This document shows, one piece after another, positions 1-17,795 of a stretch of DNA of 64,000 bases. The number at the start of each line of letters is the position of its first letter. The first letter of the stretch is position 1. This DNA comes from a virus. Location: the IMG/VR virus record IMGVR_UViG_3300041407_000094, positions 17,123 to 81,122 of that record. One strand, given 5' to 3'. The position numbers and the translations under genes were made by a program. The notes beneath the pieces were generated by a model, which was given only the letters and a program-made list of their open reading frames with translations, did not search any database and was not told where the DNA came from.

Positions 1-312
1 TCCGATGACCTTAGCGATGTCATTAAAGGGACTCCGTTCTACTTTAGTGCAGAACAAATTGCTGATCGTCTGGATGCACTTACAGAATATCGCGCAAGTC
101 TTCCTTGCCAGTGTGGTGATCCGTTGTGTGGGGTAGGCACAACAGAAACTTCTGAAGAAAACGAAGAAGACTTTGACGAAATGCCTACATTGGAAGACAT
201 GATTTCTTCTGCGGTAGCTTCCGGTATTGAGCAGTACGAAAAGAAACGATTGGCTACTGAAAAGAAAGCAAGTCGTGCAAAACCAGTAAAAATTACCGAG
301 AAATCCGAATAA
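1..312 (+). CDS. 3' end of a gene truncated by the window edge, possibly a ClpP-like protease
   Basis: Frame 1 is open from base 1 (SDDLSDVIKGTPFYFSAEQIADRL...), which resembles the C-terminal part of phage ClpP-like proteins. The catalytic region is not visible. Confidence 0.35.
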   Translation, partial: SDDLSDVIKGTPFYFSAEQIADRLDALTEYRASLPCQCGDPLCGVGTTETSEENEEDFDEMPTLEDMISSAVASGIEQYEKKRLATEKKASRAKPVKITEKSE

Positions 313-317
313 TTCGC

Positions 318-346
318 TAGACAAACCAGTGGAGTGCATGTATTAT
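318..346 (+). promoter_or_regulatory. sigma70-type promoter overlapped by an inverted repeat
   Basis: TAGACA-17-TATTAT; AGTGGAG (328-334) and CTCCACT (349-355) flank the -10 box. Confidence 0.55.
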
Positions 347-381
347 GGCTCCACTAACCCAAACACAAAGGAGAGAGTATT

Positions 382-597
382 ATGAAAACCACAGGTGAAA
401 TGTATTTTGATGAAAATGTAAGCCTTGAGCACCGTCAAGGATTTCGTTCAGGTCTTGAGAAAGCCTACGAAATTATTGAAGAATATAAGACAGCACTAAA
501 GCAAGATGGTAGGGTCAATGAACTAAATTGGGTGAATGTTTGTAGTGAACACCTAGATGACGAACTTTCCATGTATCAAGTTGGAGATGAAGAATGA
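382..597 (+). CDS. hypothetical protein
   Basis: 71-aa ORF with AAGGAG RBS. Confidence 0.7.
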   Translation: MKTTGEMYFDENVSLEHRQGFRSGLEKAYEIIEEYKTALKQDGRVNELNWVNVCSEHLDDELSMYQVGDEE

Positions 598-816
598 TCA
601 GCACACAGGAAATCGAGGAACTAATTGCAGAACAACAAGCTGACCTTGCTGCACAGGAAAAGTCAGAGAATTCTGAGGAGGAAGAATGAAAGAGTTAGAT
701 TATGATGAACGGTATGAGGATTACTTAGCCATCGTTGAACACTGCTTTGATGTGGACCCTCAATGGAACTGGGAAGTTGATTTAGAATCTAATTGTATTG
801 ATTAAAGGAGAATACT

Positions 817-990
817 TTGTCTGGATCAAATGCCAATAAGAGAAGTCAACACTTAGCAATCAGGTGTGCCCTACTCAGAGAAGAAGGTTTGACATTATCT
901 GAGATTGCTAAGTTAGTTGGGATTGAGAAAGACAAAGTAAACACAAGAACTGAACTGGGTAAACGACTTTTAAGTTTAGGAGAAATGTAA
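817..990 (+). CDS. small helix-turn-helix protein (sigma region 4-like)
   Basis: Below the ORF track cutoff. AAGGAG + TTG start; 57 aa with LREEGLTLSEIAKLVGIEKDKV HTH pattern; stop overlaps the next ATG. Confidence 0.6.
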   Translation: MSGSNANKRSQHLAIRCALLREEGLTLSEIAKLVGIEKDKVNTRTELGKRLLSLGEM

Positions 991-1301
991 TGACTGTAGA
1001 TATTCAAGAAGTGCTAGACTGCCCAATGCAAGAGAATGATTCAGAGGCAACTACAATTAAAGGCTATCTGAAAGCACTTCTCTTCACACTGTGGGACGAA
1101 GGTGAGGGATTCTCTGGTAAACGCCCGTTTGGTAATTCTAATTGGGAGGATGATGTAGCATTTGCACTTGTGAAAGGCAAGTTCATTAAAGGTCGAATCA
1201 CATCTGAAATGGAAGACGGGGAGGTTGTCAACGAGTATTTGGAGGATGCTGATTACCCATTGATGAACAAATTGATTCAACGTGCTATTGAGGCTTTGTA
1301 A
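990..1301 (+). CDS. conserved phage hypothetical protein
   Basis: 103 aa with RBS; LWDEGEGFSGKRPFGNS motif recalled from other phage hypotheticals. Confidence 0.7.
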   Translation: MTVDIQEVLDCPMQENDSEATTIKGYLKALLFTLWDEGEGFSGKRPFGNSNWEDDVAFALVKGKFIKGRITSEMEDGEVVNEYLEDADYPLMNKLIQRAIEAL

Positions 1302-1605
1302 TTATTATGCCACTATATATATGCTAGTTAAAGTTGACTTCGGACACCGTGAATATATTAGTCTATTCGACACGCAAGACAAGGTTAAAGCTTACCAGTC
1401 AAGCCTAGAGATGGAGATGTTTGACTCCAACAATCTTTGCGGTATTACTTTTTACACTGAGGAGTTTCAAGTACGATGAGTTATACAGAAGTTGAATTGG
1501 AAGGTTTGGAAAGTTCACTTGAACATTGGATTCTGAGTGATGAGCAAGATATGCGTGAAACTTTTGGTGACGACCTTGTGTTTGCTGTGAAGGAGGCTCT
1601 AGTAG

Positions 1606-2238
1606 ATGATTAGGGAGAAGCATTACGGAATAGGGATTAATGATGCTGATTGGCCATTATATACTTATGAAATAGTGGGGAATAAAAAGAAAAGAATTGG
1701 GATTTGCCCGTTTTATATGCGATGGGTTACAGTTTTAAGTAGATGCTACTCACCAAAGGAGTTAAAAAGGAATCCATCATATCTTGGCTGTGGTGTTTGC
1801 GACGAGTGGAGATACCTTTCAAATTTCAGGTCTTGGATGGAAACTCAGGATTGGGAAGGTAATCAATTAGATAAAGACTTGCTTGTCAGGGGTAATAAAA
1901 CTTATAGCCCTGAAACTTGTGTATTTGTATCACAAGACGTTAATAAATTTTTAACTGATCGTGCTAATGACAGAGGGGCTTTTCCGATTGGTGTTTATTT
2001 TGAAAAAGATTCTGGTAAATATAAAGCTCAAGGAAGCGGTGGTGTAGGGAAGCGTATAAATTTAGGCCGTTTTGGTACTCCAGAAGAAGCTCATAAAGCA
2101 TGGCTAACCTTTAAATTAGAACAAGCTTACGTGTTAGCCGAACGACAATCTGATGAGAGGGTCGCCAAGGCTTTGATTGATCGCTACGAAAATTATGTGA
2201 TGGCTTTCTCAATTACTGAGGATACTGCAAATGACTGA
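1606..2238 (+). CDS. HNH-family homing endonuclease with AP2-like C-terminus
   Basis: GIGIND...RCY...W..LSNFRSWM...LDKDLL..GNKTYSPETCVFV...N; C-terminal LGRFGTPEEAHKAW. Confidence 0.85.
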   Translation: MIREKHYGIGINDADWPLYTYEIVGNKKKRIGICPFYMRWVTVLSRCYSPKELKRNPSYLGCGVCDEWRYLSNFRSWMETQDWEGNQLDKDLLVRGNKTYSPETCVFVSQDVNKFLTDRANDRGAFPIGVYFEKDSGKYKAQGSGGVGKRINLGRFGTPEEAHKAWLTFKLEQAYVLAERQSDERVAKALIDRYENYVMAFSITEDTAND

Positions 2239-2377
2239 ATATGATCGCTGGCTAGATGATGGCATGGAAGACTGGTATTGTGACGGTGAAGAAGTACTAG
2301 AGGGTGTATATGATGAACCCGATGTAGAACCAAACACTGATTACGATAACTATGACGGCTGGGATGACATGCAATGA
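2231..2377 (+). CDS. very acidic 48-aa micro-protein
   Basis: GAGG RBS; overlaps both neighbours; 19 of 48 residues are Asp/Glu. Confidence 0.55.
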   Translation: MTEYDRWLDDGMEDWYCDGEEVLEGVYDEPDVEPNTDYDNYDGWDDMQ

Positions 2378-2658
2378 CTAAAGAAAAAGAAATTGTATCG
2401 GTTGTAGTTTCTTATGAAGACTTCACTAGCTATGATCACATACCGATTGGGAATTTCTACTTCAAAACTGCTATGGGAGATATCATTTATTTGAAGACTT
2501 CTCAACGTGAGTTGGCCCAAGAATGGATTGATGACTACGCTGGTGTTAAAGGTAAATATGTAGCAATTCCTTCCAAGGTGTTTAAGACTAAATCTAGACA
2601 GGAGAATGGACTCAGTACTGCCACAGGAACTAGTACTAGACGCGGGCAATCTAAATGA
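2374..2658 (+). CDS. hypothetical protein
   Basis: 94-aa ORF coupled by ATGA overlap to its neighbours. Confidence 0.65.
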   Translation: MTKEKEIVSVVVSYEDFTSYDHIPIGNFYFKTAMGDIIYLKTSQRELAQEWIDDYAGVKGKYVAIPSKVFKTKSRQENGLSTATGTSTRRGQSK

Positions 2659-3143
2659 AGCTTAAACATCAGCTCATGTATATGAGGATTGCAGAGGCCG
2701 CTGCTGAAACATCGTCTGCTGTCAGACTCAAGGTTGGTTGCTGTTTGGTTAAGAATAATGCAGTGATTGCAGTATCATATAATGGACTGCCAAGTTTTCT
2801 AGATGGACCTATTGAGGATAAAGTATATCTTGCGGGAGGCGGAGCTTGGCTAGATCCTGATGAGATACTTGAAACTTATCCTTACAAAGATGATGTGGAT
2901 AGATATAAATTAGTTACCAAAAAAGAATGTAGGCATGCGGAGAAGAATAGTCTTCTAGCTTTGTCTAAGAGTAACGAGAGTGCAACCGGGGCTTCGCTCT
3001 TCTGTACTCACGCATGTTGCGAACTTTGTTCGATTGATATCATTGACAGTGGAATCGTAAAGGTCTATTATCGTAACGAGTACCGAAGCACAGAAGGGTT
3101 GGAGTATCTTCGGGCAAACAATATTGAAGTAATTAAAATTTAA
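2655..3143 (+). CDS. dCMP deaminase
   Basis: KVGC..V, YNG, HAEKN and ACCELC zinc-binding deaminase motifs. Confidence 0.92.
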   Translation: MKLKHQLMYMRIAEAAAETSSAVRLKVGCCLVKNNAVIAVSYNGLPSFLDGPIEDKVYLAGGGAWLDPDEILETYPYKDDVDRYKLVTKKECRHAEKNSLLALSKSNESATGASLFCTHACCELCSIDIIDSGIVKVYYRNEYRSTEGLEYLRANNIEVIKI

Positions 3144-3153
3144 GGAGAAGAAA

Positions 3154-3582
3154 ATGCATAGCAATGAATCGAGCTGGAATCCCGACGAAATCGTAGACAC
3201 TAAATCTTTACAACTATTCACCCTTCGTGAATTTATGAAGTGTCTTAATTATGAATTTGTTGAAGGAAATCTATGGTCCAACCCATTCTTTCACTCATCT
3301 CACCATTCTAATAAAGGTCGTAATATTATTGGTTTTGTTGGAGCCCTGAAACTTTATAACGGGAATAGTGTTAAGTGTGTATTCGGTAAGCCACCAGAAA
3401 AGCTCAGCTTGTGGTCATTCAATGATTATCAAATTGCTAAAGCTAAGGCTTCACGTATCCTTGTCCGGTTGAAGCTGCAACTGTGTAAGTCTACCAAAAC
3501 TATTTTGGTTCAGGACCACCGAGTGGAATTTACTTTAAAAAGTTATTCTAGACTCTTTCTTTCGAATAAATATTTGGGGTGA
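3154..3582 (+). CDS. hypothetical protein
   Basis: 142-aa ORF with AAGGAG RBS. Confidence 0.7.
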   Translation: MHSNESSWNPDEIVDTKSLQLFTLREFMKCLNYEFVEGNLWSNPFFHSSHHSNKGRNIIGFVGALKLYNGNSVKCVFGKPPEKLSLWSFNDYQIAKAKASRILVRLKLQLCKSTKTILVQDHRVEFTLKSYSRLFLSNKYLG

Positions 3583-3781
3583 TGTATGGAGCATCGTACT
3601 ATCGCCTTGCTTTTTAGTAACTCACATTGGATGTGGTCTGAAGACTACCACTTTGGTAATCACAAAGACCTTGGGAAGTTCGTTGAAGTGTTCTTCACAA
3701 AAGGCTTCTCTGATCGTGAGGTTGATGAAGTCGTGAGGGATTACTATTCGGCAAACTGTGAGCATCTTTTTGACTAATTCT

Positions 3782-3822
3782 AAGGCTCGGGACTTGACTG
3801 TCTCGGGCTTTTATTTTATCAT
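3782..3822 (+). terminator. intrinsic terminator whose loop is the -35 box of a sigma70 promoter
   Basis: Stem AAGGCTCGGGAC / GTCTCGGGCTTT, loop TTGACT (3794-3799), T tract, TATCAT at 3817-3822 (17-bp spacer). Confidence 0.75.
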
Positions 3823-3851
3823 TGGTTTACTAATTTAAAGGAGCACAACAA

Positions 3852-4178
3852 TTGGCTAACGTTTGGTTTACATCAGACCTACACCTAGGTCACAAGAATA
3901 TTGCAAACTTCCGCACTCAGTTTGAATCTGAACTTCACCATAGGGAAGTAATTAAAGAGAATTACCACAAGGTCGTCACTAAACGTGATAAAGTGTACTT
4001 TCTTGGTGATGTGGCGTTTACACAGGAAACTCTAAAAGATGTTGGTACTTGGGTTGCTGAGAAGAAAGTACTGATTGTAGGTAATCATTGTATTGACAAC
4101 ATCAAGATGTCAGAAGTATGCAAACACTTTGATGAAGTGTACAGCCTTAAAAAGTACAAAGAAACGGTTGAATATTGA
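3852..4178 (+). pseudogene. calcineurin-like metallophosphoesterase, C-terminally truncated
   Basis: SDLHLGH, LGD and GNH motifs present; later H and GHxH motifs absent; only 108 aa. Confidence 0.65.
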
Positions 4179-4628
4179 AGAGAAGGTTTACAAATGAATA
4201 AAGCAAAACTAAAGAAAGACCTAGAACTAATCCACCGCCACCTAACACGGGCAGAAGTTGTGATGGAAAAGATAGCCACAAAGCTTGGCATTGACAGACA
4301 CGAATACTTAGAGAAAACTCTATACGAAGTGGAAGAGTTGCTGAAAATGTTTGAAGACAACGGACCACCAAAGACCCACTAGGCCTTGTTTAGTTACTTA
4401 GTGGACATCATAAAGACTTTTAGAGAACATTTGCAATGGTAGGATTAGTTAAACAACGTCTAGCTTGGGAAGCAGAATTTGCATTAGGTGCTGAGACAGA
4501 CTTCGTAGCTTTCAAAGAATATAAGGAAAAGAGATTGTCTGAAGATTTCAGACTGTCAAGTTATATGGAAAAGCATTTTGAATATGTGATTAACTTAGAA
4601 CGACGGCTTAAATTGAAGGAGAAAGAAG

Positions 4629-5009
4629 ATGAGTAATCCAAACTTTACACCGATTACAGACGCTCAACGAGAGCAGGCTAAACAACAACGTCTAGCTGAC
4701 CAAGAGTTTGCCCGTAATAACTTAAAAGTAACATACATGGACCAACCACACTGGGTGACATTGGCTTCAAAATATAATTGCAAACTGCCGATGTGGTGGA
4801 AGCCCTCTAGTGATGTGAAATACCTTAGGCGAGTGGCCAAGAAAGCTAATTTTGATTTGAATGTGTTCGTAGAAAGTACAGGCTGTTCTAATATCAAAGA
4901 ATATGCTGACTTAAACTCAAATTGGAGCGTTCTTGGACTGGTTGGTACTCTACTTGAGTTTATTGATGAGCAAAAGAGCTTAGAATCAAGCGCATGTACT
5001 ACAAGTTAA
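4629..5009 (+). CDS. hypothetical protein
   Basis: 126-aa ORF with RBS, overlapping the previous gene. Confidence 0.7.
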   Translation: MSNPNFTPITDAQREQAKQQRLADQEFARNNLKVTYMDQPHWVTLASKYNCKLPMWWKPSSDVKYLRRVAKKANFDLNVFVESTGCSNIKEYADLNSNWSVLGLVGTLLEFIDEQKSLESSACTTS

Positions 5010-5503
5010 GGGAGTTTTAGGGGTATAAAACTATGATCTCTGTTTCAAAGCTGTGGGATCAGGGTTGTAAAGACACGAAGTTTCTGATATGATATATTTC
5101 CAATGAAAGGAGTAATAAAATGTTTATAATTCTATATCTCGCAATAACTTTAGTAATGCTGTATAGCGAAGCACTCGATTGCTACAGAACTAAAGTGAAA
5201 TTCAATATCCTCGGTAGTTTGTTGTTCTCCTTTGCTTGGATTATATCCCTACCTTGGTCTATTTATAGTATTTGGGCTGTTCAACAGAAAGATACAAACT
5301 GAGTAACTTGGTGGGGTGTAAATAATGACCAAACAATATTCCCATGACAGAGAAGTGATCAAAGACTTCATCCGCTTCCTGTCAGATGAGCATAAGTGTG
5401 CAGTGGTGTGTTTTCCTGATGAATTTGCAGCCAACAGTTATGTGAACTATAAGTTTATTAACGTTTCAGATATCTTGGAAGAGTTTTTGGAGGGGAGAAA
5501 GTA

Positions 5504-6337
5504 GTGAGCATTCAAATGAATAACCAAACAATCGTGTTAGGGAATCAGTCCATGTACGTTTCAATTAAGCCGGGGAAGCTTGGGGCTGTCCCACTTTTGA
5601 TAATGAATGGTATAGGAGCGAATACTGGTCTGCTGACTCCGTTTGTTGAAGCTATGCACGAATCAAATCCTGAACTTGAGATTATTACTTTTGATGTGCC
5701 GGGGTGTGGTGGATCTTCTGTTCCCTCTTTTCCATACCGATTCAGTGGTTTGGCTAAAACAGTAAGTCAGGTACTTGACTATTTGAACTATGGGCAAGTT
5801 GATGTACTTGGCCTATCATGGGGTGGATTTTTGGCGTCGCAGTTCGCATACGATTACCCACAACGTTGTAAGAAACTAATACTATGCGCGACGGCCACTG
5901 GCGTTACATCCGTTCCACCTAGTTTTAAGGTGTTGTCGCTGATGGCTTCGCCTAGACGCTACTCTGACTCAGCTTATATGATCGAGATTGCTCCTCTAAT
6001 CTACGGTGGAAAATTCCGCTCTGATCCTGAGCTAGCAATTAAGTATGCACGGAAGATGGAAGCTAATAGGTCTGAAAATAAAGCTAACACCGCTGGATAC
6101 AAGTTTCAACAGCTAGCAATTTGTTGGTGGAGCAGCATGTGGATGCTTCCTTGTATTAAACAACCTACACTTCTGATTGGTGGTAGCGATGATCCAATCA
6201 TACCGTTAGTGAATATGAAGATTATGAAAGGACTTATTCCTAATTCAAAGCTTCATGTGGTGGACGATGGACACCTTTTCCTACTCTGTTCAACTGATGT
6301 GGTAACACCTATTATTAATGAATTCTTGGAGGGTTAG
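5504..6337 (+). CDS. phaZ: poly(3-hydroxyalkanoate) depolymerase (intracellular mcl-PHA type)
   Basis: Collinear with Pseudomonas PhaZ: PLLIMNGIGAN, FDVPG.GGSS.P..PYRF.GLAK, lipase box GLSWGG, CKKL, MASPRRY, IAP.IYGG.FR.DP, QPTL...G.DDPIIPL.NM, DDGHLFL. Confidence 0.93.
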   Translation: MSIQMNNQTIVLGNQSMYVSIKPGKLGAVPLLIMNGIGANTGLLTPFVEAMHESNPELEIITFDVPGCGGSSVPSFPYRFSGLAKTVSQVLDYLNYGQVDVLGLSWGGFLASQFAYDYPQRCKKLILCATATGVTSVPPSFKVLSLMASPRRYSDSAYMIEIAPLIYGGKFRSDPELAIKYARKMEANRSENKANTAGYKFQQLAICWWSSMWMLPCIKQPTLLIGGSDDPIIPLVNMKIMKGLIPNSKLHVVDDGHLFLLCSTDVVTPIINEFLEG

Positions 6338-6724
6338 ATGATAATTGAATATGCTAGAATACTCTCACCTCCAATGTGCAGGCGATATCCAGAGAAGATA
6401 TACATCTATGGTGATAACTTAAAAGCCTTCGGTAAAGGAGGGCAAGCTATCATCCGTGATGAGCCTAATGCTTTGGGTATCCCAACTAAACGATACCCTT
6501 CTTGGGATGATTGGGCATTCTTTAGTGATAAACCAGATGAAATTGAAGCTGTAAAGATATCCCTACGTGAATTGTGGAAGGTTGCACAAGACAAAGTGAT
6601 TGTATTCCCTGAAGATGGTATTGGAACAGGAAGGGCTAAGATGAAAGAGAAATCTCCTGTTGCTTATGAGATGATGTGTGGTATATTGTGGGAACATTTT
6701 GGTATTGTTAATGGAGGAAAATAA
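6338..6724 (+). CDS. conserved phage hypothetical protein
   Basis: YGDN...GKGGQA.IR.EPNA.GIPTK and FP.DGIGTGRA motifs, recalled from many phages; starts immediately after the phaZ stop. Confidence 0.75.
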   Translation: MIIEYARILSPPMCRRYPEKIYIYGDNLKAFGKGGQAIIRDEPNALGIPTKRYPSWDDWAFFSDKPDEIEAVKISLRELWKVAQDKVIVFPEDGIGTGRAKMKEKSPVAYEMMCGILWEHFGIVNGGK

Positions 6725-6991
6725 TGACAAACCCTGAACGCTGTTCATGTGGAGCTAGGGAGAAGAATAAGTGCAGTGAGGAGAGTGAACATGGAACTGG
6801 GAAGATGTGTTTGAAGGATGAAGATAAGGTCATAGTGAAGAAAGGTAGGATTAGGATTAAACAAGGTTGGGGAATCTATATACTGTCGAATGTCGGCTTA
6901 GTTGGTGGCTGCCCTTTTGGTGGTACATGGGGTATACCAGCTATTTTGATGTTGCACAGAACCATATAAAGTGGATTGAGGAGAATATACT

Positions 6992-7300
6992 GTGAACCAA
7001 ACAATTGAAGACAGGATGCAAGCTGTAGAAGATCAACTGAAAGAAATTCGTAAAGAATTGGAGGAGAGTTTGGCGAGGTATAAGGATAAAGAAGACCCTC
7101 TTGCAAACTACAATCTGCACACAGCAAACCCTAACCTCCCTGTGTGGGATGCATCTACTTACTATAGGGAAGGCTGTCTTGTAAAATGGCCTGATGGTGG
7201 TATAATGAAAGCTAAGATTAATACCATATCAAATATTGAAGATTGGTATGACCCTGCAAAATGTGATATACATGGAAACATGGTTGAGAAGATCAAATGA
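6992..7300 (+). CDS. hypothetical protein with possible CBM5/12-like motif
   Basis: N-terminal coiled coil followed by PVWDASTYYREGCLV.W.DG...KA. Confidence 0.5.
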   Translation: MNQTIEDRMQAVEDQLKEIRKELEESLARYKDKEDPLANYNLHTANPNLPVWDASTYYREGCLVKWPDGGIMKAKINTISNIEDWYDPAKCDIHGNMVEKIK

Positions 7301-8041
7301 AACCTAACGGCTGCAATGAAGATGGTTGGGACTTATTCGAACAGCAGACTAAAGAAGAGTTTGAACATTATGCTGTTCGTAGGGGATATGATATAACACG
7401 AGACAGTGAATACAGCTTCTTCTATGCTGATAAGCGTACAGCGGATGCTTGGGAGATGTATCATCAGGGTCATGTTAGCGGGAGGGTGTGGAATGATTGA
7501 ACATTACACAAAAGAGGGTGGACATTTCAAAGTAGGGTTGTCTGCCAATAGCAACCACATACTCTTGCAGATTCAGAATAAGTATGGAGATCAAGCAAGA
7601 GAAGCACTCACTAGTACAGAGGCTGAACATGTTGCTTTGCTATTACTGGACTACGTAAAGGAATTAAAGAATGAAACCAATAATCCTTAAAACACCAGAA
7701 GGGCTATATGTCTGTGAAATACCAATTGAGAATGAACCAGAAGATGGGGCATCTGATAGAACGTGGTGGATATGGGCAGCAACAGGAGTTGGTAGTAGTC
7801 CAGTAGAGGCTTATGATAGGTGGGTACTTGACTATGAGTCACAATTGGAGGATAAGGTGTGATGAACAAAGACACAATTATGGATTTCATCGAATGGCTT
7901 GAAGATGAAAAGAATGTTTATCTTGTAGATATGTACTACCACAATAAAGAGGGTACAGGGATGTTTGATTCACTGGATGAAGTGAGAAGTCTGGTGGATG
8001 AGTTTGCAAAGTTGCCGTCTGTCGGATACATAGACACAGCC

Positions 8042-8070
8042 TTGTAAACGCAGATTTAAGCTGATATAAT
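8042..8070 (+). promoter_or_regulatory. sigma70-type promoter (extended -10)
   Basis: TTGTAA-17-TATAAT with TGn before the -10. Confidence 0.7.
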
Positions 8071-8132
8071 CATTTCATAGCATCAAAGCTATACGGACAA
8101 TCTTGTCCTGAATATTATTTGGAGATTTAAAT

Positions 8133-8642
8133 ATGACAACTTACCACGTAGAACTTACAGGCCATTGCGATGTGATTGTAGAGGCTAATAGTGAGCAAGA
8201 GGCATTTGATCGTGCTGTAGCTCGCATTCCTTCGTCTTCCTTGAGTATCGAGACAGCAGAAGTGAAGGGTGTGTTGGAAGGTGAAGCTTTGAAACAGGCT
8301 TATCGTTATTTTCCTGAGCATTTGGCTATGGTGGATACAGAAGTGTTTGAGAAGGAAGAGAATTTTGTATTGTACACCAAGGAAATGCAAGATGCTGATG
8401 CGCTTGATGCTGACAAGATTTATAAAGAGCTTTCTGCACGTAAATCCGCTGGTGAAACTCTTGATTGGATTGATGAAGAGTTCCTTGAGCAACATTCTTA
8501 CATCAACGGTTTGGTAGAAGAACTTATTCCAAAGCAAGAGAGTTACAAAGATAAGATGATGGCTTGTTTTGATGAGGATGATAATTTTGTTGGCTTGGTT
8601 GGTCAACAAGAGAATGGTACTTATAAGATTTTGAAGAAATGA
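8133..8642 (+). CDS. acidic hypothetical protein
   Basis: 169-aa ORF with GGAG RBS downstream of a promoter. Confidence 0.75.
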   Translation: MTTYHVELTGHCDVIVEANSEQEAFDRAVARIPSSSLSIETAEVKGVLEGEALKQAYRYFPEHLAMVDTEVFEKEENFVLYTKEMQDADALDADKIYKELSARKSAGETLDWIDEEFLEQHSYINGLVEELIPKQESYKDKMMACFDEDDNFVGLVGQQENGTYKILKK

Positions 8643-9104
8643 AACAGTCTCGTGAACAAGCAAAGCAACGATATGCTGAACGTTCAGTGGATGAGCAGAT
8701 ATCTGATGCTATCAACAGTATGGAGAGTATTTACGAGACAATGGTAAATCAACCTGAGTGGTTGAATAACCCAAGTGAAGAATATATTGAAGGATTTAAG
8801 TTTGCCATGAATATGATGAATAGTCGATTCTTTCCAGAGGATGTAATTAAATGACTGTAAGTGAATATGAAGATTTCAAACCCACCGTAGAAGATTTGAT
8901 GTTGGCTCAGAGAGTAATTATGGCATCTCACAAGCAACTTATGAGGGAGTGGTCAGATGGTGATCTTGGGCAAAACCAAGACCCTGAAATCTTCCGACTA
9001 AAAGAGTCTTTGCTTGTTGCCCATGCCACACTTATGTTGTTTTAATTTATAATATCCTCACATTTCTTAATTGATTTGTGGGGTGCTTTTATTTTGGAGG
9101 GGTT

Positions 9105-9710
9105 ATGGCATATAGGATTATACAAGGTGTAGGCATTAATGATGCCGGCTATGTAGTTAATAAGACGGACAGTCTAGGTAGGAGGGTTAGGTGTCCATTC
9201 TATGTTAAGTGGGCAGCGATGCTAGAACGATGCTACTCTGAGTCTTTTCATAAAACCAATCCAAGCTACGTAGGGTGTTCTGTGCATCCCAACTGGCACA
9301 GGTTCAGTAACTTCAAAGCTTGGATGGAACAGCAAGATTGGGAAGGGAAACACTTGGACAAAGATCTACTAATTATTAACAATAGAATATATTCCCCTGA
9401 AACTTGCGTTTTTGTTAGTGGTGCGGTTAATAACTTTACTCTTGATGGTGGCAACCAGAAAAGTGGACTACCGATGGGAGTATCACTAGACAAGAGCTAT
9501 GTTCCGTTGATGTACAAGGCACAGTGCAGGAGTGTTATAAGTGGGAAGAATGAGACTGTGGGCCGTTCACCAAACCCAGATATTGCACACAAAGCATGGT
9601 TAGCAGCTAAGCTAGAACAAGCTTACATCCTTGCAGAACAACAAACAGATAAGCGTGTAGCTGAAGCTTTGATTGATAGGTATGAAAATTATAAGGAGTA
9701 TTTTGGTTGA
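9105..9710 (+). CDS. HNH-family homing endonuclease (paralog of 1606-2238)
   Basis: GVGIND, LDKDLL, YSPETCVFV and a near-identical C-terminus; ATG at 9105 follows GGAGG. Confidence 0.85.
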   Translation: MAYRIIQGVGINDAGYVVNKTDSLGRRVRCPFYVKWAAMLERCYSESFHKTNPSYVGCSVHPNWHRFSNFKAWMEQQDWEGKHLDKDLLIINNRIYSPETCVFVSGAVNNFTLDGGNQKSGLPMGVSLDKSYVPLMYKAQCRSVISGKNETVGRSPNPDIAHKAWLAAKLEQAYILAEQQTDKRVAEALIDRYENYKEYFG

Positions 9711-10945
9711 CAGACATACAAATCGTAGATGCAATATGTGGTGCAGGTAAAACAACTTGGGTGTTTGATCATATGCGCAGGCATCCAGATAAGAAGTGGA
9801 TATTTGTAAGTCCATATCTAGACGAAGCTGGTGATGGTGAACACAAAGGTCGTATTCAAGAAGAGCTTCCTGAGTTTGGATTTAGATCACCATCTAGCAC
9901 ACCAAGTAAAACAAAAGACTTCTTACGCCTTGCACAGAAAGGAAAGAACATTGCTATTACCCACAAACTGTTCACAGGCTTTAGTCCTGAAGTGGCATTG
10001 GTTTTGAAGGAACAGAAATACCATCTTGTGATTGATGAAACTATAGACCTTGTTTCATTCTATGAAGACATCAGCCACGAGGATGTTAAGTTTCTTATTC
10101 TTGCCGGAATGGTTAAGTGTGGTGATAAAGGACTCCTTACATGGAATAATGAGCTATGGCCTAATTATACAGGTAGGGATATTAGAATCAAAGAACTCTG
10201 CGAACTAGGTTGTCTGTGGCTTTACGGAGAGAATGTATTGATTCAACGTATCCCACCAACTTGTATGAAAGCTTGTGAATCTGTTATCATCCTTACCTAT
10301 TTGTTTGAAGCCAGTCTTATGCACTGCTGGATGCAGCTCAATGAAATGGACTGGAGATACTTACAACCACAAGAGATGAGGTTAACATCAGACATAAAGA
10401 AGATAATCAGAAACAAGATACATCTGATTGAACCTCCTAAACTTGTAAAGGACTTGCAACGTACTGAATACGGAGCACCAATACTCAATCCATTCAATGT
10501 CACTTGGTACAAGGATAATGAACCAATACTAGAAAGAGTTAAGAAGAGTATTGAAAGCACACTGAAAGATGATATGGATAAGGGTAATGTCTTCTGGACA
10601 ACCTTTAAAGAATGGGAGTCAGACCTTGCAGGTGTAGGTTATAAGAGATCTAGGAAAGTAGAAGGTAAACTTAGAAAACCCTTTGTACCTAAGAATATGA
10701 GAGCTTCTAACGAATACAGAGATTGTACTAACTGTATTTACACAATCAATATCTATCCTCATGGTAGTTTAGAAAGCCACTTGAGGGCATTTGGTATTGT
10801 GCTAGATAGAGATCTGTATGCATTGTCTGAAGTCGTTCAGTTTATCTTTAGGGGCAGTATTAGGGAACATAAAGACATGTACCTCTATATCTTATCGGAT
10901 AGAATGAGGACTTTAGTGAGTAATTGGTTACAAGAGGATTACTAA
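9707..10945 (+). CDS. SF2-like (DEAD-related) helicase, possible origin-binding protein
   Basis: Walker A DAICGAGKT, Walker B LVIDE, late motif QFIFRGSIR. Confidence 0.7.
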   Translation: MTDIQIVDAICGAGKTTWVFDHMRRHPDKKWIFVSPYLDEAGDGEHKGRIQEELPEFGFRSPSSTPSKTKDFLRLAQKGKNIAITHKLFTGFSPEVALVLKEQKYHLVIDETIDLVSFYEDISHEDVKFLILAGMVKCGDKGLLTWNNELWPNYTGRDIRIKELCELGCLWLYGENVLIQRIPPTCMKACESVIILTYLFEASLMHCWMQLNEMDWRYLQPQEMRLTSDIKKIIRNKIHLIEPPKLVKDLQRTEYGAPILNPFNVTWYKDNEPILERVKKSIESTLKDDMDKGNVFWTTFKEWESDLAGVGYKRSRKVEGKLRKPFVPKNMRASNEYRDCTNCIYTINIYPHGSLESHLRAFGIVLDRDLYALSEVVQFIFRGSIREHKDMYLYILSDRMRTLVSNWLQEDY

Positions 10946-11647
10946 TCTCATATCTAGTATTGGTGTTTACTCTAATTGGAATACGTTCGAGATGGAGTAA
11001 AATATCTACACCCCTTGTAAACAAAGGCTTTCACAGCAAAACCCCTTATAGATTTTATATTAACAAAATATAGGTTGGTAACTTAATATCACCAACTCCC
11101 CTCTGGAATAGGACTAGCTTTCAACTAGTAGTCCTAATTTTCTGTATCTTAAATATGTGTAAGATCCTTATAAGCCTTTGAAATTACTAGATATTTAGAC
11201 TAGGTGTTTAGCAAGGGTAACACACCCCGTTTTAACATGCAAGAGGAATTTAAAATATTGGAGACTTCGCCGACGAACGGTCTACCTAGACTGCATGCAC
11301 CTATCGTACCAACTAAACTACCACCTGTCGCCTAAACTAAATGTCTTGACAGGAGCACTGACCTATGGATGTAACAGCTTAGCTTGCTATGGGAACGTGT
11401 AACATGGATTATGTTCAAGTAATACTATAACACTACTGACCAGTCACCCTGAACAGACTACATATGTCAACCATAATAATCTCCTCTGCACAACTAGCAC
11501 ACTTCACTAGCTTAAGTCAATGTATTGTGATGTTTGTGAGCAAGGATTGGCTAAGAGATGGGTGGAATGGAATCGTTACAGGGGGAAGCAGCGACAAGAG
11601 CGTCTGTGCTTAACTACCAAAGGTAGTCTCGCATACTTACAGATGAC

Positions 11648-11741
11648 TATAAAGTGACTAAAACACTCTTATCAGTCACATTGGAGACTAAGTAGAATAA
11701 AGCTTTGACAGGATTTGTTAGTGTTTATAAAGTGACTAAAA
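11648..11741 (+). repeat. 16-bp direct repeat TATAAAGTGACTAAAA (2 copies)
   Basis: Exact copies at 11648-11663 and 11726-11741. Confidence 0.85.
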
Positions 11742-11770
11742 GAAGAGGTGTAGTCATATTTAAGACAACA

Positions 11771-11796
11771 TAAAGCCGACTCTTTAGTCGGCTTAG
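11771..11796 (-). terminator. intrinsic terminator ending the leftward early region
   Basis: AAGCCGACT/AGTCGGCTT stem just downstream of the last minus-strand ORF. Confidence 0.7.
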
Positions 11797-11814
11797 AATT
11801 ACCCTGCTAGAGTG

Positions 11815-11967
11815 TCAGACTACAACTTCCTTCACTAACCAGTCTTCAGGATCGTCTACAGACTGTTTGACTATCTCCACAGCCTGCTGTGCAGTACTGG
11901 CTTGAACAGCCTGAGAGTGGGTGACAGAGCTGAACTGGTTGATTAGGGTGATTGTATAAGTAGTCAT
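11815..11967 (-). CDS. 50-aa hypothetical early protein
   Basis: Below track cutoff; MTTYTITLINQF...; has its own promoter at 12001-12029. Confidence 0.65.
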   Translation of the reverse strand: MTTYTITLINQFSSVTHSQAVQASTAQQAVEIVKQSVDDPEDWLVKEVVV

Positions 11968-12000
11968 TTTGTTTAATCTCTGTTTGTCTTTGGTGTTTAG

Positions 12001-12029
12001 AGTGTAGCCCTCTTTCGAGGGCTTGTAAA
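12001..12029 (-). promoter_or_regulatory. sigma70 promoter with a hairpin as its spacer
   Basis: TTTACA-aGCCCTC GAAA GAGGGC-TACACT (17-bp spacer). Confidence 0.75.
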
Positions 12030-12283
12030 CACTTATCTTAGATCTTTAGCACCATTTACAACCTCTTGTGCAGCCTTTTTGTTGGTCATTTGAACTTTAC
12101 GGCTTGCATTCAGGTGACTGTACTCTCCAGTTGCCCGTGCAGCATTGATTGCAGATGTAGGACCAATTGAGTCAATGATGAATGCCACTTTAGAGGTCTC
12201 ATATTCACCGGCTTTGTAGAGTTCAACGAAGTAGATGGTCATTTTCGTATTCCTTTCAGGAGGTTTTCTTTGTCTGTGTGGTT

Positions 12284-12311
12284 AGTATAACAGACTAGAG
12301 ACCTCCGTCAA
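12284..12311 (-). promoter_or_regulatory. sigma70 promoter
   Basis: TTGACG-16-TATACT with extended -10 TG. Confidence 0.7.
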
Positions 12312-12690
12312 GAACTATTTTCATGTTTTTACTCATTGGTTTGACACAACAATAACAGCTTCTCTAGCAGTTCATCGGGGTTACTGTCTTGATCAAAACA
12401 CATAGGTACGACCTGTGATACCAATCTTTTTATCTCGTCAAGTTCGTTAGTCAGCGAGACGATCTTTTGGTCTATGTTATCAGGGTTGTCTGAATAGGAA
12501 CCGAAAGCAATGGGGTTTGCAGGAACTCCGTTTTGTAGTTTAAGGTGCTCAAAACTGGAGGAGTTGAGATTGCAAACTAATTCTCCGTTCACCCAGACTT
12601 CCCGGCACTTAGTTTTCCGGTTATCGAAAGTGCCTTCTAAGTATTCATTCATATTTGATCTTCCTAATTAGTGTTTCGTTCTGATGCCTC

Positions 12691-12719
12691 ATTGTAAGAG
12701 AATTTATCTACCCTGTAAA
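12691..12719 (-). promoter_or_regulatory. sigma70 promoter
   Basis: TTTACA-17-TACAAT with AT-rich upstream element. Confidence 0.7.
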
Positions 12720-13221
12720 CAACTATTTTCAATTTATTTTAAAGCTTTCAGAGGCTCAAAGAGCCTCAAACCTAATAGGATATTCAGGCTTTGCCTGTTC
12801 CATCCATTCTCACAAAGCTTCGAATCGGATTGGCGTGTATTCAGCATAGTCATTACTCATCATAGTGAATTGCTCATACATCTCAGCACGTTCAACATGG
12901 AGGGACTTTTACCATTGTTTCAATACAGACCGTACACTAGACACATCATCAATGAGAGAATGCAGCTTCTCAACAGCTTCCCACTCACTAAATGCACAAA
13001 CAAGAATCCACAAATGACCTTTGCAATAGCTAGTGTCGTAATTCAAGATAAACATGATATTAGCTCCAGTATTGAACAGTGAAAGAATCAGCATTATTCT
13101 TAGTGAAGTAGGCTTTGTAGCCTTCACCTTTCAATTCAGCTACCAAGGAGATTGCTTGGGCTTCTGTGTAGCGTTCGATGTAGGTCATGATCTTTACTCT
13201 GTGTTTGGTTGGTATGTCTAG

Positions 13222-13250
13222 ATTGTAAGCCCCTTTCGAGGCTCTGTCAA
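13222..13250 (-). promoter_or_regulatory. sigma70 promoter with a hairpin as its spacer
   Basis: TTGACA-gAGCCTC GAAA GGGGCT-TACAAT (17-bp spacer). Confidence 0.8.
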
Positions 13251-13500
13251 CCACTCTTACAAAACTAAATCATTCTCTGAGTCAGCACCACGGACATATT
13301 TGCCATCAAAAGTGTAGTAGGCGATACGATGAACCAAGCCATTGGTCTGCATAATCTTACCGAAGAAAGGGTAGAAATCATCACCCTTATCGTGCTCGAT
13401 GGTTACAGTCATACCAGATTTAGTTTTGTAGGTTTGGCCGATAGTGATCATGTTCTGTACTCTGTGTTGGTTGGGTTGAGCTTTCTGCTCTGTATGGCTC

Positions 13501-13529
13501 ATTATGAAGCTATCCACCACACCAGTCAA
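13501..13529 (-). promoter_or_regulatory. sigma70 promoter
   Basis: TTGACT-17-CATAAT. Confidence 0.7.
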
Positions 13530-13552
13530 CAATTATTTTAAGAAGTTTATAT

Positions 13553-13777
13553 TTATTTGGGGTCTTCTGGTAAGGGCATCCAGTGTGTAGGTGTGAAGCC
13601 AATAGGTCCATCACAAGGCAGCAATTCACCTGCACAGAAGTAGTGCCACTTGTCATCAATAAATTCACAATCTGTTAAGCGCATCTCAATTAAATCATAC
13701 TGAATGTGCCCGAATAAATCAACAGATTCTAATGATAAATCTACAGTTTCAATTGGTAGCCAGTCACTCATATTCAA
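13553..13777 (-). CDS. DUF551-like protein
   Basis: WLPIET ... PTHWMPLPEDPK signature. Confidence 0.7.
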   Translation of the reverse strand: MNMSDWLPIETVDLSLESVDLFGHIQYDLIEMRLTDCEFIDDKWHYFCAGELLPCDGPIGFTPTHWMPLPEDPK

Positions 13778-14891
13778 TCCCCTTGCCCATTTATCCCACT
13801 ATAATAATCCCCACCATGATTCCCTGTCCTTTTGCTCCATATGTCTTCAGCAGAATGTTCAGACAAGGTGTTTTCGATATTGTCCCAACTCATGTATTTA
13901 CTATTCCACTTGTGAAGCTTCTTAGACTTGATGTCTAGCCTGTAATCAGAGCCTAAGCTTTGATCATCACTATCTAGCTTAAAGTAAACTGTTGTATATG
14001 TCACCCATGTGCAAGTGAGAAAACTTGATTCATAGTAGTCGGCTTGGAGCTTGTATTTGGTGCCCTCTTGATAGTTCATGATTCAATCCTAAGATAATTG
14101 ATAGATCTTTTCTAGAACCAATTGTTTGATTGGTTGAGCATCAGGCTTGTAGTTTGTCTCCACTTGAACAGAGTAAACGTATGCAAACTCTTCACTTAGT
14201 TTCTTGTGAAGTAATTCAGGAATTTCTGTGACAAACTCGTATTGTTCTAGATACAAGTAGTCATCACCAGATTCTGTCTTTAAGGCTACAGCAGCATATT
14301 TAATCTTCATCTAAATTCTCCACTAGGTCAGGTATGATAGCGCGAAGCTTCCACATGTAGTACATACAGTTGTTTTCATTGTGAACAGGAACCAGTCACT
14401 CGGGAATCCACGTCAGAAATTGTTTGTCGGTCATTTGTTTTTCTCTTCCTTGATACGCATTGCATAACCCAGCATCATGTTGAAGTTGAAAGGAGTATAG
14501 CCATGGAATTCGCTAGTAGGCCATTCACCATCCATCTTAGTAATGCATTCTTCAATAGACATGGATTTCAAGTCTTCACAAGCTGCTTCATAGCCTTTAG
14601 CTTGGATTGCATCTTTCTCTTCGCGGGTCAGTTGGGTAGTCATGTCTTTAGTCTCTTTGGTTGGTGAGAGCTTTTCTCTCTTCTTGTGTCCATTCTACTC
14701 TATTGATGCGGACGTGCAAGCTTTATTTAAAAGAATTTCGATTTATTTGCGATGCAGTCATTAGGACTTTTCAATGAGTTTTATGTCTTGCAGCGATAGA
14801 CCAGTCTCTTCTAAAAAGTAATCTACCGCCTTTCTGACATCTGTATGCATGGATTTTACCCAAGTCCCGTTATATGCTGTAATCTTCCAGA

Positions 14892-15047
14892 TCATGCCTC
14901 TATCTCCCAATTCCGCTTAAGACTCCGCTCAGTACTATAGCTTCGCTTCTTGTCTTTACGATCTGTCTTATACTGGTCTGCACACTTGCGCTTAGAAGAA
15001 TGCTTGCGTTCATATTTCTGGCATGATTCTTGTGTGTAGGTGTTCAT
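14892..15047 (-). CDS. small basic protein (T7 gp1.1-like composition)
   Basis: Below cutoff; 51 aa, K/R-rich, ends KRNWEIEA; overlaps both neighbours. Confidence 0.5.
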   Translation of the reverse strand: MNTYTQESCQKYERKHSSKRKCADQYKTDRKDKKRSYSTERSLKRNWEIEA

Positions 15048-15645
15048 TACATCCAATCCTCGTTTACATCACCAAAAGTAAAATGACCAACATCACGCAA
15101 TTCCTTGAGTGCTTCAGCAATCACATAGGCCCGATAGCTTCCATTGTGATGATTCTCATCAAGAAGGAACAATTCAATAGCTGAAGACTTCAAAGCTTCT
15201 GGAAGATTCATACTAGCCTCTTTCGCATAGGGTGTCAACTCAAGCACCTTAGACCAAACATACTCTCTTGACCATTTCATTTCAACATCTCCGATTCAAT
15301 CATCTGTTTTGTATTATACATTGGAACACATGGAGTGTCTGACGTAGGAAGACAGACCCATTGCCCATTGTCACGGAATAATTTAGCACGTGTGCCTTGG
15401 GAAAGGAAGAGAAAAGCTTGTTGGAAGGTTGTTTGATAGTTTGTCATTATTGTTCTTCCAAGTGTACGCAGTTAGCAAGGTTTGTATAGTCTTGAGTGAT
15501 AGTTGTGACAGCCGTAAGTTTAGGAGTTCCCATAGGACTACGAACTTCATCAAAACGCTTAAAAGCTTCTTGGACATCTGTAAACTCTTCCGACCAAGAA
15601 TCGTGGATTTCTAATACATATTTGATTGTGGTTGTATTATCCATG

Positions 15646-16272
15646 TTACACCTCTTTAAGAGTCTTAATGTATCGTTTGGTTGCTTGGCTGTAGTGTATC
15701 AAAGCTTTAGTGGTCTTGCAAGCAATCTGTAAAATCTTTTTAAAACTATTTGTGTGGGGAAGATCCTCGATGAAATCGGACATCCAGCTCACTCCACAAG
15801 GTGTGGCTACCTCTGTGTGGGTGTACTCTACATCAGACGTTTCATAGGCACTTTCTACGCCAACTTCGTCTGTTTCCTCACGAATTGGACGGACACTTGT
15901 AGCTTTCTTAAGAAGCTCTTCAGCCCTATCACGTTTGACGATTAAAATGTCACGTAATTTTGAATAGGTGTGAATGTCCATCCCGGCTTTACGTTCGGCT
16001 TCAAGTTCGATGAGTTGTTCTGTCAACACACGAACCCGGCGTTGCTGAGGTAAGATGCGATCAACCAAAGGGATGGAAGTCTTACGTTTCTCTTTGTTAG
16101 CTTCAAGTGCAGCATCAGAGAAAGCTTCTACTCGGGCCCTCCCATTTTTATCAAATGTGCTGAAGTCAACCGAACGATCACCGCGATACTGGTCATTTCC
16201 GCCGGACCAAAGTCCATGCTCTTCGCAGCTATTTAGAAAACTTGGTTGTATGTACATGCGAGTCATTATCAT
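15646..16272 (-). CDS. hypothetical early protein
   Basis: Long ORF; AGGAG precedes the ATG at 16272, downstream of the promoter at 16306-16334. Confidence 0.75.
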   Translation of the reverse strand: MIMTRMYIQPSFLNSCEEHGLWSGGNDQYRGDRSVDFSTFDKNGRARVEAFSDAALEANKEKRKTSIPLVDRILPQQRRVRVLTEQLIELEAERKAGMDIHTYSKLRDILIVKRDRAEELLKKATSVRPIREETDEVGVESAYETSDVEYTHTEVATPCGVSWMSDFIEDLPHTNSFKKILQIACKTTKALIHYSQATKRYIKTLKEV

Positions 16273-16305
16273 TCTCCTGAAGCTTTGTTTGTTCCTGTTG
16301 TGATG

Positions 16306-16343
16306 ATTGTATAACAACGCAGAAAGGAGCACAAGGCTCCTTT
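16306..16343 (-). terminator. terminator hairpin overlapping a -35 box, with promoter
   Basis: AAAGGAGC-CTTGT-GCTCCTTT; TTGTGC-17-TACAAT. Confidence 0.6.
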
Positions 16344-16353
16344 AAGGTTTATT

Positions 16354-17127
16354 TTAGTCATCTATTGAGATTTCCCATGACAGTAAGGCTTGGTAAGCCC
16401 TTGGGTCAATTTGATCCTTATAGATTTCAGCCGCTTCCTTGATCACACGTTCTTTGTTCGTTTTGTAGAACATAAAAGCTTCGTTCACTGTCCAAAACCT
16501 TTTAAGTTTCTTTGACCCACTAAACTCATTGAATTGTGCTGTGAATTGGTTTCGGCCTTTACCTTTATGTACACCAATAGGGTATTCACCCCGCCCACCA
16601 ATTCGGGTAACAATTAGCATATTCAAATCGTGGGGTAGCATCACACAGGTGTCTGGCCCATAAACTTTATTACCTTTGAATAAAAGATCCTTGTCAATGT
16701 TCCACATGTTGTTGCCCCAACCTATGGCAGACTCTGACCAGTCTCCAAAATCTTGAAAGCACTCCCACTGTGAATCGACAGAACAACCTCTGTATGTTGG
16801 TTTCTGAATTAGAAATTTCTCCGAATGACATCGATTATAAAGGCCCTTCCATGTAGAATACTCTAATGTGTGTACGCCAGAGGCTAGTGGTATGTGCTTA
16901 CCAATGCCGACATAGCCCCTACCATATACGGACGGCTTGTATGGATTATAAAGCTTACCGTTACTAAGATTAGTCGTATTAACAACCTGTTCATAGCCAA
17001 CACCATCAAGCCACTTGACCAATACCCTTTGTTTGCCTAACCCTGACACTTCAAGTATCTGCACATCCACACCACAGTTTGTTGGATATACATCACCTAT
17101 AAAATACTTTCTTACTGTCACAAACAT
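16354..17127 (-). CDS. HNH-family homing endonuclease
   Basis: NPYKPSVYGRGY.G, W.CFQDF, IDKDLL.KGNKVYGPDTC..LP..LN. Confidence 0.85.
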   Translation of the reverse strand: MFVTVRKYFIGDVYPTNCGVDVQILEVSGLGKQRVLVKWLDGVGYEQVVNTTNLSNGKLYNPYKPSVYGRGYVGIGKHIPLASGVHTLEYSTWKGLYNRCHSEKFLIQKPTYRGCSVDSQWECFQDFGDWSESAIGWGNNMWNIDKDLLFKGNKVYGPDTCVMLPHDLNMLIVTRIGGRGEYPIGVHKGKGRNQFTAQFNEFSGSKKLKRFWTVNEAFMFYKTNKERVIKEAAEIYKDQIDPRAYQALLSWEISIDD

Positions 17128-17130
17128 CTC

Positions 17131-17337
17131 CTATAATTTCTTAGATATATTTCCACACACTGAGCAACGCACGGAGCCACTGCACAACATCATTAAAATG
17201 TAGACAGGTAATGCCAACAGACCGGTTAGTAGGGTCAAGACCAACCCTACAAAGTGCCCACCGCCGGATAACCCAGACTTAATACCCACCCGGTTTGCCT
17301 TGCAAGACTTACAGAAACACATCACTTGACTGCTCAT
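17131..17337 (-). CDS. membrane-anchored zinc-ribbon (LITAF-like) protein
   Basis: CxxC - hydrophobic segment - CxxCG. Confidence 0.55.
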   Translation of the reverse strand: MSSQVMCFCKSCKANRVGIKSGLSGGGHFVGLVLTLLTGLLALPVYILMMLCSGSVRCSVCGNISKKL

Positions 17338-17766
17338 TCTATATCACCTCAATCAATTCAGTTGTATACCAATTCTGTAGCCACTGGCCCTTACCATCAT
17401 CAAAAAGTATAGTGGCTGTTTCATTGTCCTGTCCTACGTTGTTAAAGGTTATCTCTTTAACCTCACAAGCGGATTTGAATTTGCTGCCACCTACATGGGT
17501 GAACACCTTATCACCGGGTTGAAGCTCGCCTATAAGCTTTTTGATGATCACACTCCAAACCGATTAGTCAGCATGCGATCACGAGTGGCGTTGCTTGCTG
17601 AAGCACCGTAGTGGGTCTTGGAAGACAAGGCTGCATAGGCGGCTACAGCTTGTTCGTTAGAAAGGATGCCAGCTTTGAGGGCTGCTTCTACACGGGCTTT
17701 GAGTTGGGACATGTTCATGGTTGTTGCTCCGGTTGGTTTAGAAGCTTTCTGCTTCCTATGTCTTAG

Positions 17767-17795
17767 AGTTTAGGGTATCTAGAAAGTCCTGTCAA
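17767..17795 (-). promoter_or_regulatory. sigma70 promoter
   Basis: TTGACA-17-TAAACT upstream of a 56-aa ORF (MNMSQLKARVEAALKAG...). Confidence 0.75.

Follow-up and report, generated by a model that had tools for sequence, protein, structure and literature searches.

Does a bacteriophage carry its own enzyme for breaking down the polyhydroxyalkanoate (PHA) granules of its host, and what might it gain from doing so? The question is raised by a phaZ-like gene on a 64,000-base stretch of DNA, here called the window, which comprises bases 17,123–81,122 of the 81,122-base IMG/VR virus record IMGVR_UViG_3300041407_000094 (CheckV completeness 92%). In Pseudomonas and other soil bacteria, PHA may account for a large share of the cell mass when carbon is abundant but other nutrients are in short supply, and host energy limits phage replication under these conditions. 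A preliminary description of the window had read the gene as an old auxiliary metabolic gene of a lytic phage, coding for an intracellular PHA depolymerase (PhaZ). We consider it rather probable from the sequence analyses that the phage adds an active, cytoplasmic PhaZ-type depolymerase for medium-chain-length PHA (mcl-PHA) to the cell and thus taps the host store during infection. The auxiliary gene reading is backed by the enzyme family, the phage-borne position, the detachment from phaC genes, the ameliorated composition, a clade of its own and purifying selection, but it has to be modified in two respects, as this type of gene had been listed for phages before and the gene is dispensable.

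The gene and the codons of its catalytic residues are located in the window as follows.

5504..6337, plus strand: phaZ-like gene, 277 amino acids, GTG start and TAG stop (from the open reading frame list), corresponding to bases 22,626–23,459 of the 81,122-base record
5606..5617, plus strand: codons N35-G36-I37-G38 of the NGIG motif (residues 35–38), oxyanion and lid-connecting loop
5816..5818, plus strand: codon of the nucleophile S105 in GLSWG (103–107), aligned with S102 of P. putida PhaZ
6191..6193, plus strand: codon of the catalytic acid D230 in GSDDP (227–231), aligned with D221 of P. putida PhaZ
6272..6274, plus strand: codon of the catalytic base H257 in DGHLF (255–259), aligned with H248 of P. 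putida PhaZ

The open reading frame (ORF) contains no internal stops or frameshifts. Its product was assigned to the Pfam family Abhydrolase_1 (E 4.5e-30) and passed the NCBIfam equivalog model TIGR02240 for poly(3-hydroxyalkanoate) depolymerase with 330.8 bits (E 6.2e-99; curated cut-off 250.6 bits), the match spanning profile positions 5–264 of 276, whereas the runner-up NCBIfam family reached just 87.6 bits. Canonical Pseudomonas PhaZ copies obtain 606–619 bits with the same model, and the PHROGs label of the window protein is limited to "esterase/lipase". For the enzyme of P. putida KT2440, the available text of PMC12504323 gives a catalytic triad of S102/D221/H248, an FNGIG loop at residues 34–38 with an essential N35, and a YYWQLF hinge at residues 190–195. 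All of these elements have counterparts in the window protein, as its MNGIG (34–38) aligns with the FNGIG loop, its YKFQQL (199–204) with the hinge, and S105, D230 and H257 with the triad; the latter three residues were the same in all 26 sequences aligned. The four motifs quoted in the preliminary description (NGIG, GLSWG, GSDDP and DGHLF) were thus all intact in the 277-residue alpha/beta hydrolase, and its assignment to the Pseudomonas PhaZ family stood as well. The best 80 matches among 185,579 species, each represented by one genome, were Pseudomonas-type PhaZ proteins with 53–56% identity over the full length. Like PhaZ of P. putida, the window protein carries no signal peptide. Taken together, the alignments and the family model support the view that the protein genuinely belongs to the mcl-PHA depolymerases.

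The closest known system is accordingly the PhaZ of P. putida KT2440/KT2442 (PhaZKT), with which the window protein shares the TIGR02240 family, the triad, the FNGIG-type loop with N35, the hinge and a helical lid. Unlike the gene for PhaZKT, the window gene is phage-encoded and not placed between phaC1 and phaC2, and the two differ in GC content at third codon positions (GC3; 39% in the window gene vs. 83% in Pseudomonas phaZ) and belong to separate clades. The window protein is also longer by three residues behind position 51 and by about six in the lid, and it lacks the disordered C-terminal tail which the available text of PMC12504323 describes for residues 266–283 of PhaZKT.

The preliminary description had noted that no phaC genes flank the phage gene, and this was borne out for the whole virus record. 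With the P. guariconensis proteins PhaC1 and PhaC2, which both pass TIGR01839, as tblastn queries, we obtained only matches at E ≥ 2.2 in the 81,122 bases. The same detachment was observed in the other viral loci: none of 36 IMG/VR loci contained a phaC within 6 kb of phaZ, whereas at least one phaC was present beside phaZ in 79 of 80 loci of Pseudomonas-type genomes, with two phaC in 76 of them. The placement between phaC1 and phaC2 is a feature of the cellular operon and not of the enzyme. In base composition, the gene (GC 43.2%, GC3 39.2%) fell within the range of the phage, although it was slightly richer in GC than its surroundings, ranking 36 (GC) and 39 (GC3) among 46 phage ORFs of at least 150 amino acids with medians of 41.3% and 35.4%, respectively. 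It was far from the values of a Pseudomonas phaZ (GC 64.1%, GC3 82.9%), and across the viral loci the GC content of phaZ followed that of the carrier genome from 39 to 61%. These values support a fully ameliorated composition, as had been proposed from the AT-rich appearance of the gene.

The relationship of the phage copies to the cellular enzymes was analyzed by a quick tree of the top matches (183 rows) and by a careful mixture-model tree for which 57 of these rows were chosen, and both trees agreed. In the careful tree, a clade with support of 96/94 united the query with 22 of the 24 viral rows, 14 rows from metagenomes and a single odd bacterial row, whereas the canonical Pseudomonas PhaZ proteins formed a clade of their own (99/100). 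Within the phage clade, the query belonged to a nested clade of 28 rows (100/98). The member from phage RP12 and the L028 group were placed outside the main phage clade on an unresolved backbone; monophyly of all 40 phage-type rows, a group defined post hoc from the tree, was not rejected (p-AU 0.276). The phage copies therefore form a clade of their own that is distinct from cellular PhaZ, while the direction of transfer is not readable from the trees because the rows are a subset of the top matches and bacteria beyond Pseudomonas are under-sampled. A codon alignment of the query and ten relatives yielded dN/dS values of 0.065–0.164 among the 25 pairs listed, which indicates purifying selection; dS amounted to 0.58–1.06 for close pairs, and farther pairs were saturated. 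These ratios support the view that phaZ has been under purifying selection in phages and was probably not freshly captured. The low dN/dS, the ameliorated composition and the separate phage clade indicate selective maintenance of the gene.

The presence of the gene among the relatives of the phage is uneven. Sixteen near-complete relatives (at least 78 kb) were found via the baseplate protein, and phaZ was present in eight of them and absent from the other eight; therefore, the phage can do without it. In the first 12.5 kb of the query's group, phaZ was the sole ORF found in all ten syntenic loci, with neighbours ranging from absent to 97% identity. The patchy presence and the highly mosaic neighbourhood would fit a passenger, which may be a recent capture from the host, a chimeric assembly or a decaying moron of no use to the phage. 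Against such an origin stand the same arrangement in independent assemblies from several samples, the fully ameliorated composition, the intact reading frame, dN/dS values near 0.1 with dS reaching about 1, and a deep phage clade that excludes host genes. Because of the selection values, the recurrence in relatives, the clade and the composition, we regard the passenger explanation as largely refuted and give it a very small probability.

A search for relatives among 5.8 billion protein clusters yielded 1,699 matches, of which the top 119 showed 55–91% identity and were in many cases encoded on contigs of 75–92 kb; among 120 proteins listed, a single one, a copy from Pseudomonas lini, was located on a contig of more than 300 kb. 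Metagenome proteins clustering with the query numbered 105. In IMG/VR, 35 contigs from 19 sample identifiers contained a relative with 50–90% identity. The carriers belong to several unrelated phage types, including the query's own group at 85–93 kb and a record of 307 kb, and complete carriers with terminal repeats measured 85.8, 103.8, 228.6 and 283.6 kb. Among 50,697 GenBank phage records, a full-length relative was found only in the Ralstonia jumbo phages RP12 and RP31 (46.5% identity). On the bacterial side, only 2 of 300 genomes sampled evenly from the same class passed the TIGR02240 cut-off, one of them being the centre genome itself. An extended reading is that a phage-specific PhaZ lineage with a lid insertion has spread from phage to phage across unrelated types (myovirus types of 85–93 kb, phages of 104–116 kb and jumbo phages of 228–307 kb), liquidating host PHA granules as fuel; we hold this to be a serious possibility, with slightly less than an even chance of being correct.

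Two side observations concern this distribution. The same sample series (identifiers 3300041407, 3300041411, 3300042009, 3300042010, 3300042013, 3300025728 and others) repeatedly contains PhaZ-bearing phages from several unrelated lineages, and seven of the eight relatives of the query's group without PhaZ come from other sample identifiers; carriage of phaZ may track habitat. Moreover, Pseudomonas lini CC269 (NZ_JAUSSR010000005.1) contains two family members, a canonical phaZ with 606 bits and a second copy with 333 bits. The second copy (L038:5004-5816) falls inside the phage clade, shows a GC content of 45–49% vs. 55–60% in its flanks, and is located beside genes of polysaccharide synthesis (UDP-galactopyranose mutase, a glycosyltransferase and an epimerase) and not beside phaC or prophage genes. 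It may represent a transfer from phage to host.

The carrier is the genome of an uncultured tailed phage, with portal and terminase genes upstream of phaZ and genes for primase/helicase, DNA polymerase, baseplate and tape measure downstream, and phaZ is likewise enclosed by viral genes in complete relatives with terminal repeats; the record additionally encodes an exonuclease, ribonucleotide reductase, ThyX, dCMP deaminase, a baseplate wedge protein and a tailspike. The description of the phage as lytic is backed indirectly, by the lack of a tyrosine integrase (PF00589) in the 92%-complete record and by the nearest cultured relative, the Ounavirinae myovirus vB_PsaM_M1 of Pseudomonas (89,387 bases), whose baseplate protein is 65% identical. 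The DNA polymerase was closest (44–49%) to those of phages infecting hosts of the Pseudomonas putida group, Acinetobacter and Rheinheimera. A single rhizosphere metagenome run contained a fraction of 0.94 of the sampled words of the stretch and may be the source sample. Because of the vB_PsaM_M1-like baseplate, the relatives of the DNA polymerase, the Pseudomonas PhaZ proteins as best cellular relatives and this run, the host is probably a Pseudomonas, and probably one of the rhizosphere. Window positions 1–20000 gave no megablast match to the 50,697 phage records.

Some further properties of the genome were observed in the comparison with vB_PsaM_M1. The genome is mosaic (window 33307–35562 vs. 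56936–58375): its baseplate/tail module is closest to vB_PsaM_M1 (52–66%), whereas the DNA polymerase lacks a counterpart in that phage and has its nearest relatives in Pseudomonas phages of the phiPMW/SYP type and in Acinetobacter phages (44–49%). Six paralogous ORFs (window 1606–2238, 9078–9710, 16354–17127, 35581–36336 and 45325–45987, and genome position 15124–15927) all match one vB_PsaM_M1 gene, "Y38_BPT7 Protein 3.8", with 33–43% identity; one of them contains an AP2 domain, and the set looks like a scattered family of free-standing homing-endonuclease-like genes. A 458-residue protein (window 25916–27292) belongs to PHROG 4756, to which PHROGs assigns no function, and is 28.6% identical to the product of a vB_PsaM_M1 gene annotated as "DNA polymerase" (35730–37085). 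Finally, a CapR homology domain (E 3.7e-14) occurs in a 326-residue protein that is encoded on the opposite strand within the block of baseplate genes (window 58822–59802) and is 41% identical to the product of a vB_PsaM_M1 gene annotated as "endonuclease".

The following features concern the lid, which governs access of the substrate, and the insertions relative to the host enzyme.

5909..6106, plus strand: lid domain, residues 136–201, helical in the model and counterpart of lid 133–192 in P. putida PhaZ
5657..5665, plus strand: insertion H52-E53-S54, three residues relative to canonical Pseudomonas PhaZ and common to the near relatives of the query (alignments)
6056..6088, plus strand: M185–N195 in the lid, a part longer than in P. 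putida PhaZ by about six residues (alignment)

An AlphaFold2 model of the window protein, calculated from an alignment of 26 rows (pLDDT 89.9, pTM 0.90), predicts an alpha/beta-hydrolase core with a helical lid whose helices lie at about residues 141–207. The N-terminus was modelled as the beta-hairpin of the fold and not as a signal peptide, so the protein is predicted to be soluble and cytoplasmic. Model confidence was lowest at M185–N195, with pLDDT block means of 78, 65 and 78 over residues 181–210. Both insertions relative to the host enzyme that had been quoted as MHESNP and MEANRSENKAN do exist, but they are smaller than these strings and amount to three and about six residues; an effect of them on granule binding or regulation is speculative. 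Consensus identity to canonical PhaZ amounted to 0.46 in residues 136–204 vs. 0.61 and 0.53 in two parts of the core, whereas the lid is conserved inside the phage clade (mean conservation 0.71). Structure searches retrieved no solved structure of the PhaZ family, the closest PDB folds being generic esterases and lactonases, and a search of BFVD retrieved only generic alpha/beta hydrolases.

If the preferred reading is correct, the phage would produce a soluble PhaZ-type serine esterase during infection, probably of a rhizosphere Pseudomonas, and the lid-bearing enzyme would attach to the PHA granules of the host. Its triad S105/D230/H257 would cleave the polyester to (R)-3-hydroxyalkanoic acids, which host acyl-CoA synthetase and beta-oxidation would convert to acetyl-CoA, reducing power and ATP. 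These products may then feed phage replication in carbon-rich, nutrient-limited cells.

Several points weigh against this sequence of events. The TIGR02240 score of the window protein is about half that of canonical PhaZ, and the lid, which governs access of the substrate, shows by alignment the greatest divergence from the host enzyme and additionally contains an insertion. The gene is accessory in the query's phage group, as evident from the eight of 16 near-complete relatives without it. The nearest cultured phage vB_PsaM_M1 lacks PhaZ as well, and it is a distant relative with just 31 of 108 crude ORFs in common at a median identity of 40%. The tailspike (window 52989–54980) gave no host signal, with only partial matches of 8–32% coverage to phages of many hosts. 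Furthermore, Ralstonia solanacearum stores short-chain poly(3-hydroxybutyrate) (PHB) and is not known to store mcl-PHA. Because RP12 and RP31, the only cultured carriers, infect this PHB-storing host, the phage family members need not all act on mcl-PHA.

The halved score and the diverged lid with its insertion would also fit an active esterase whose specificity drifted in the phage clade after capture, so that its substrate is no longer the PHA granule; another cytoplasmic ester may serve instead, the candidates being lipid intermediates, short-chain PHB oligomers, and acyl esters of 3-hydroxy fatty acids, for example precursors of rhamnolipids. Such a shift would agree with the unspecific PHROGs label, with the nearest solved folds being generic esterases and lactonases, and with the member in RP12/RP31 (295.9 bits), whose host is a PHB maker. 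It is less easily reconciled with an equivalog-level model that was passed far ahead of the next competitor, with the retention of N35 and the hinge Y199–L204, which are important residues in PhaZ, with a lid that is conserved among the phages, and with the phaC-flanked PhaZ identity of all the closest cellular relatives. We therefore regard a shifted substrate as unlikely, though it deserves more weight than the other alternatives.

A different alternative accepts the degradation of PHA but places the gain elsewhere than in fuel, namely in space for virion assembly, in fuller lysis and release, or in 3-hydroxy acids altering host physiology. It draws on the same family evidence as the preferred reading, and the wide differences between the carriers, which range from myovirus types of 85 kb to jumbo phages of 228–307 kb, would fit a generic problem of cell state. 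On the other hand, phaZ is not located beside lysis genes in the window, and the endolysin gene of RP12 is 3.4 kb away from its phaZ with four genes between them. We judge a gain of this kind to be quite improbable and retain the use of the granules as fuel as the preferred explanation.

The immediate neighbourhood of phaZ contains the following features.

5489..5497, plus strand: purine-rich Shine-Dalgarno-like sequence GGAGGGGAG, 6–10 nucleotides upstream of the GTG start (read directly from the sequence)
5325..5504, plus strand: upstream ORF of 59 amino acids, abutting phaZ and forming the left edge of the insertion site
6338..6724, plus strand: DUF7831 gene, 128 amino acids (Pfam PF25176, E 7.6e-30)

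The GTG start of phaZ overlaps the TAG stop of the upstream ORF (5502–5504) by one base, and the DUF7831 gene begins one base past the phaZ stop, with its ribosome-binding site inside the 3' end of phaZ. The 59-residue ORF, for which a Pfam search gave no family, is retained in relatives without PhaZ too. In two of the eight such relatives (G314 and G316), a homologue of the ORF at 6992–7300 lies within 190 or 390 bp downstream of it, and the DUF7831 gene is missing along with phaZ; these genomes represent a clean presence/absence difference of both genes at one site. The DUF7831 gene adjoins phaZ in the window and in loci L002, L009 and L010, whereas the unrelated 104-kb phages of loci L026 and L036 contain a homologue of 52–53% identity 3.4 kb upstream of phaZ, and none was found in the remaining phaZ loci examined. 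An obligate functional pair of phaZ and DUF7831 was rejected for these reasons. We found no conserved promoter upstream of phaZ, as the 480 upstream nucleotides fail to align across 11 relatives, and sigma-70-like sites were not above chance (40 found vs. 32.8 ± 5.3 expected from shuffled sequence). No RNA runs containing window positions 3000–9000 were listed.

The literature places the finding as a phage lineage of a known enzyme, of a gene type that had already been noticed in phages. The preliminary description knew of no characterised phage PhaZ, and neither such an enzyme nor an account of this phage clade was found in the literature searched (supplementary gene tables excluded), but the gene type itself was already listed in 2017: in the available text of Matsui et al. 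(PMC5468394), RP12-ORF269 and RP31-ORF266 appear as "poly(3-hydroxyalkanoate) depolymerase" in one line without comment, while their GenBank labels read "esterase/lipase" or "hypothetical protein". The RP12/RP31 member resembles the window gene in being phage-borne, in its TIGR02240 assignment and in its identity over 97% of the query, and in RP12 no phaC flanks it in the annotated 12.8 kb. It differs in being carried by phiKZ-related phages of 280 kb that infect another host genus (Ralstonia solanacearum), and the RP12 protein differs by its long branch outside the main phage clade and by a short, host-like lid without insertion. Available descriptions of two other cases propose phaC and fatty-acid genes in phages of PHA bioreactors (PMC12013262) and a candidate PHB depolymerase in a Gloeobacter prophage (PMC13317609). 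Both resemble the present case as host-type metabolic genes in viral genomes that were proposed to steer host carbon metabolism, but as described they concern PHA synthesis genes or a PHB depolymerase of a cyanobacterial prophage, and not a clade of the mcl type in phages of virulent type. Our search found no literature on PHA granules during phage infection.

If the preferred reading is correct, phaZ would represent a class of auxiliary metabolic gene directed at a storage polymer, with a bearing on carbon turnover in the rhizosphere and on phage outbreaks in PHA bioproduction, and the phage clade would be a varied source of mcl-PHA depolymerases for the recycling of bioplastics. If the extended reading of a lineage spreading from phage to phage also holds, the second, low-GC phaZ of Pseudomonas lini, the sole bacterial copy in the clade, would be a return from phage to host, and the auxiliary metabolism of phages would regularly be directed at bacterial storage polymers in habitats that are rich in carbon but poor in nutrients, the rhizosphere among them.

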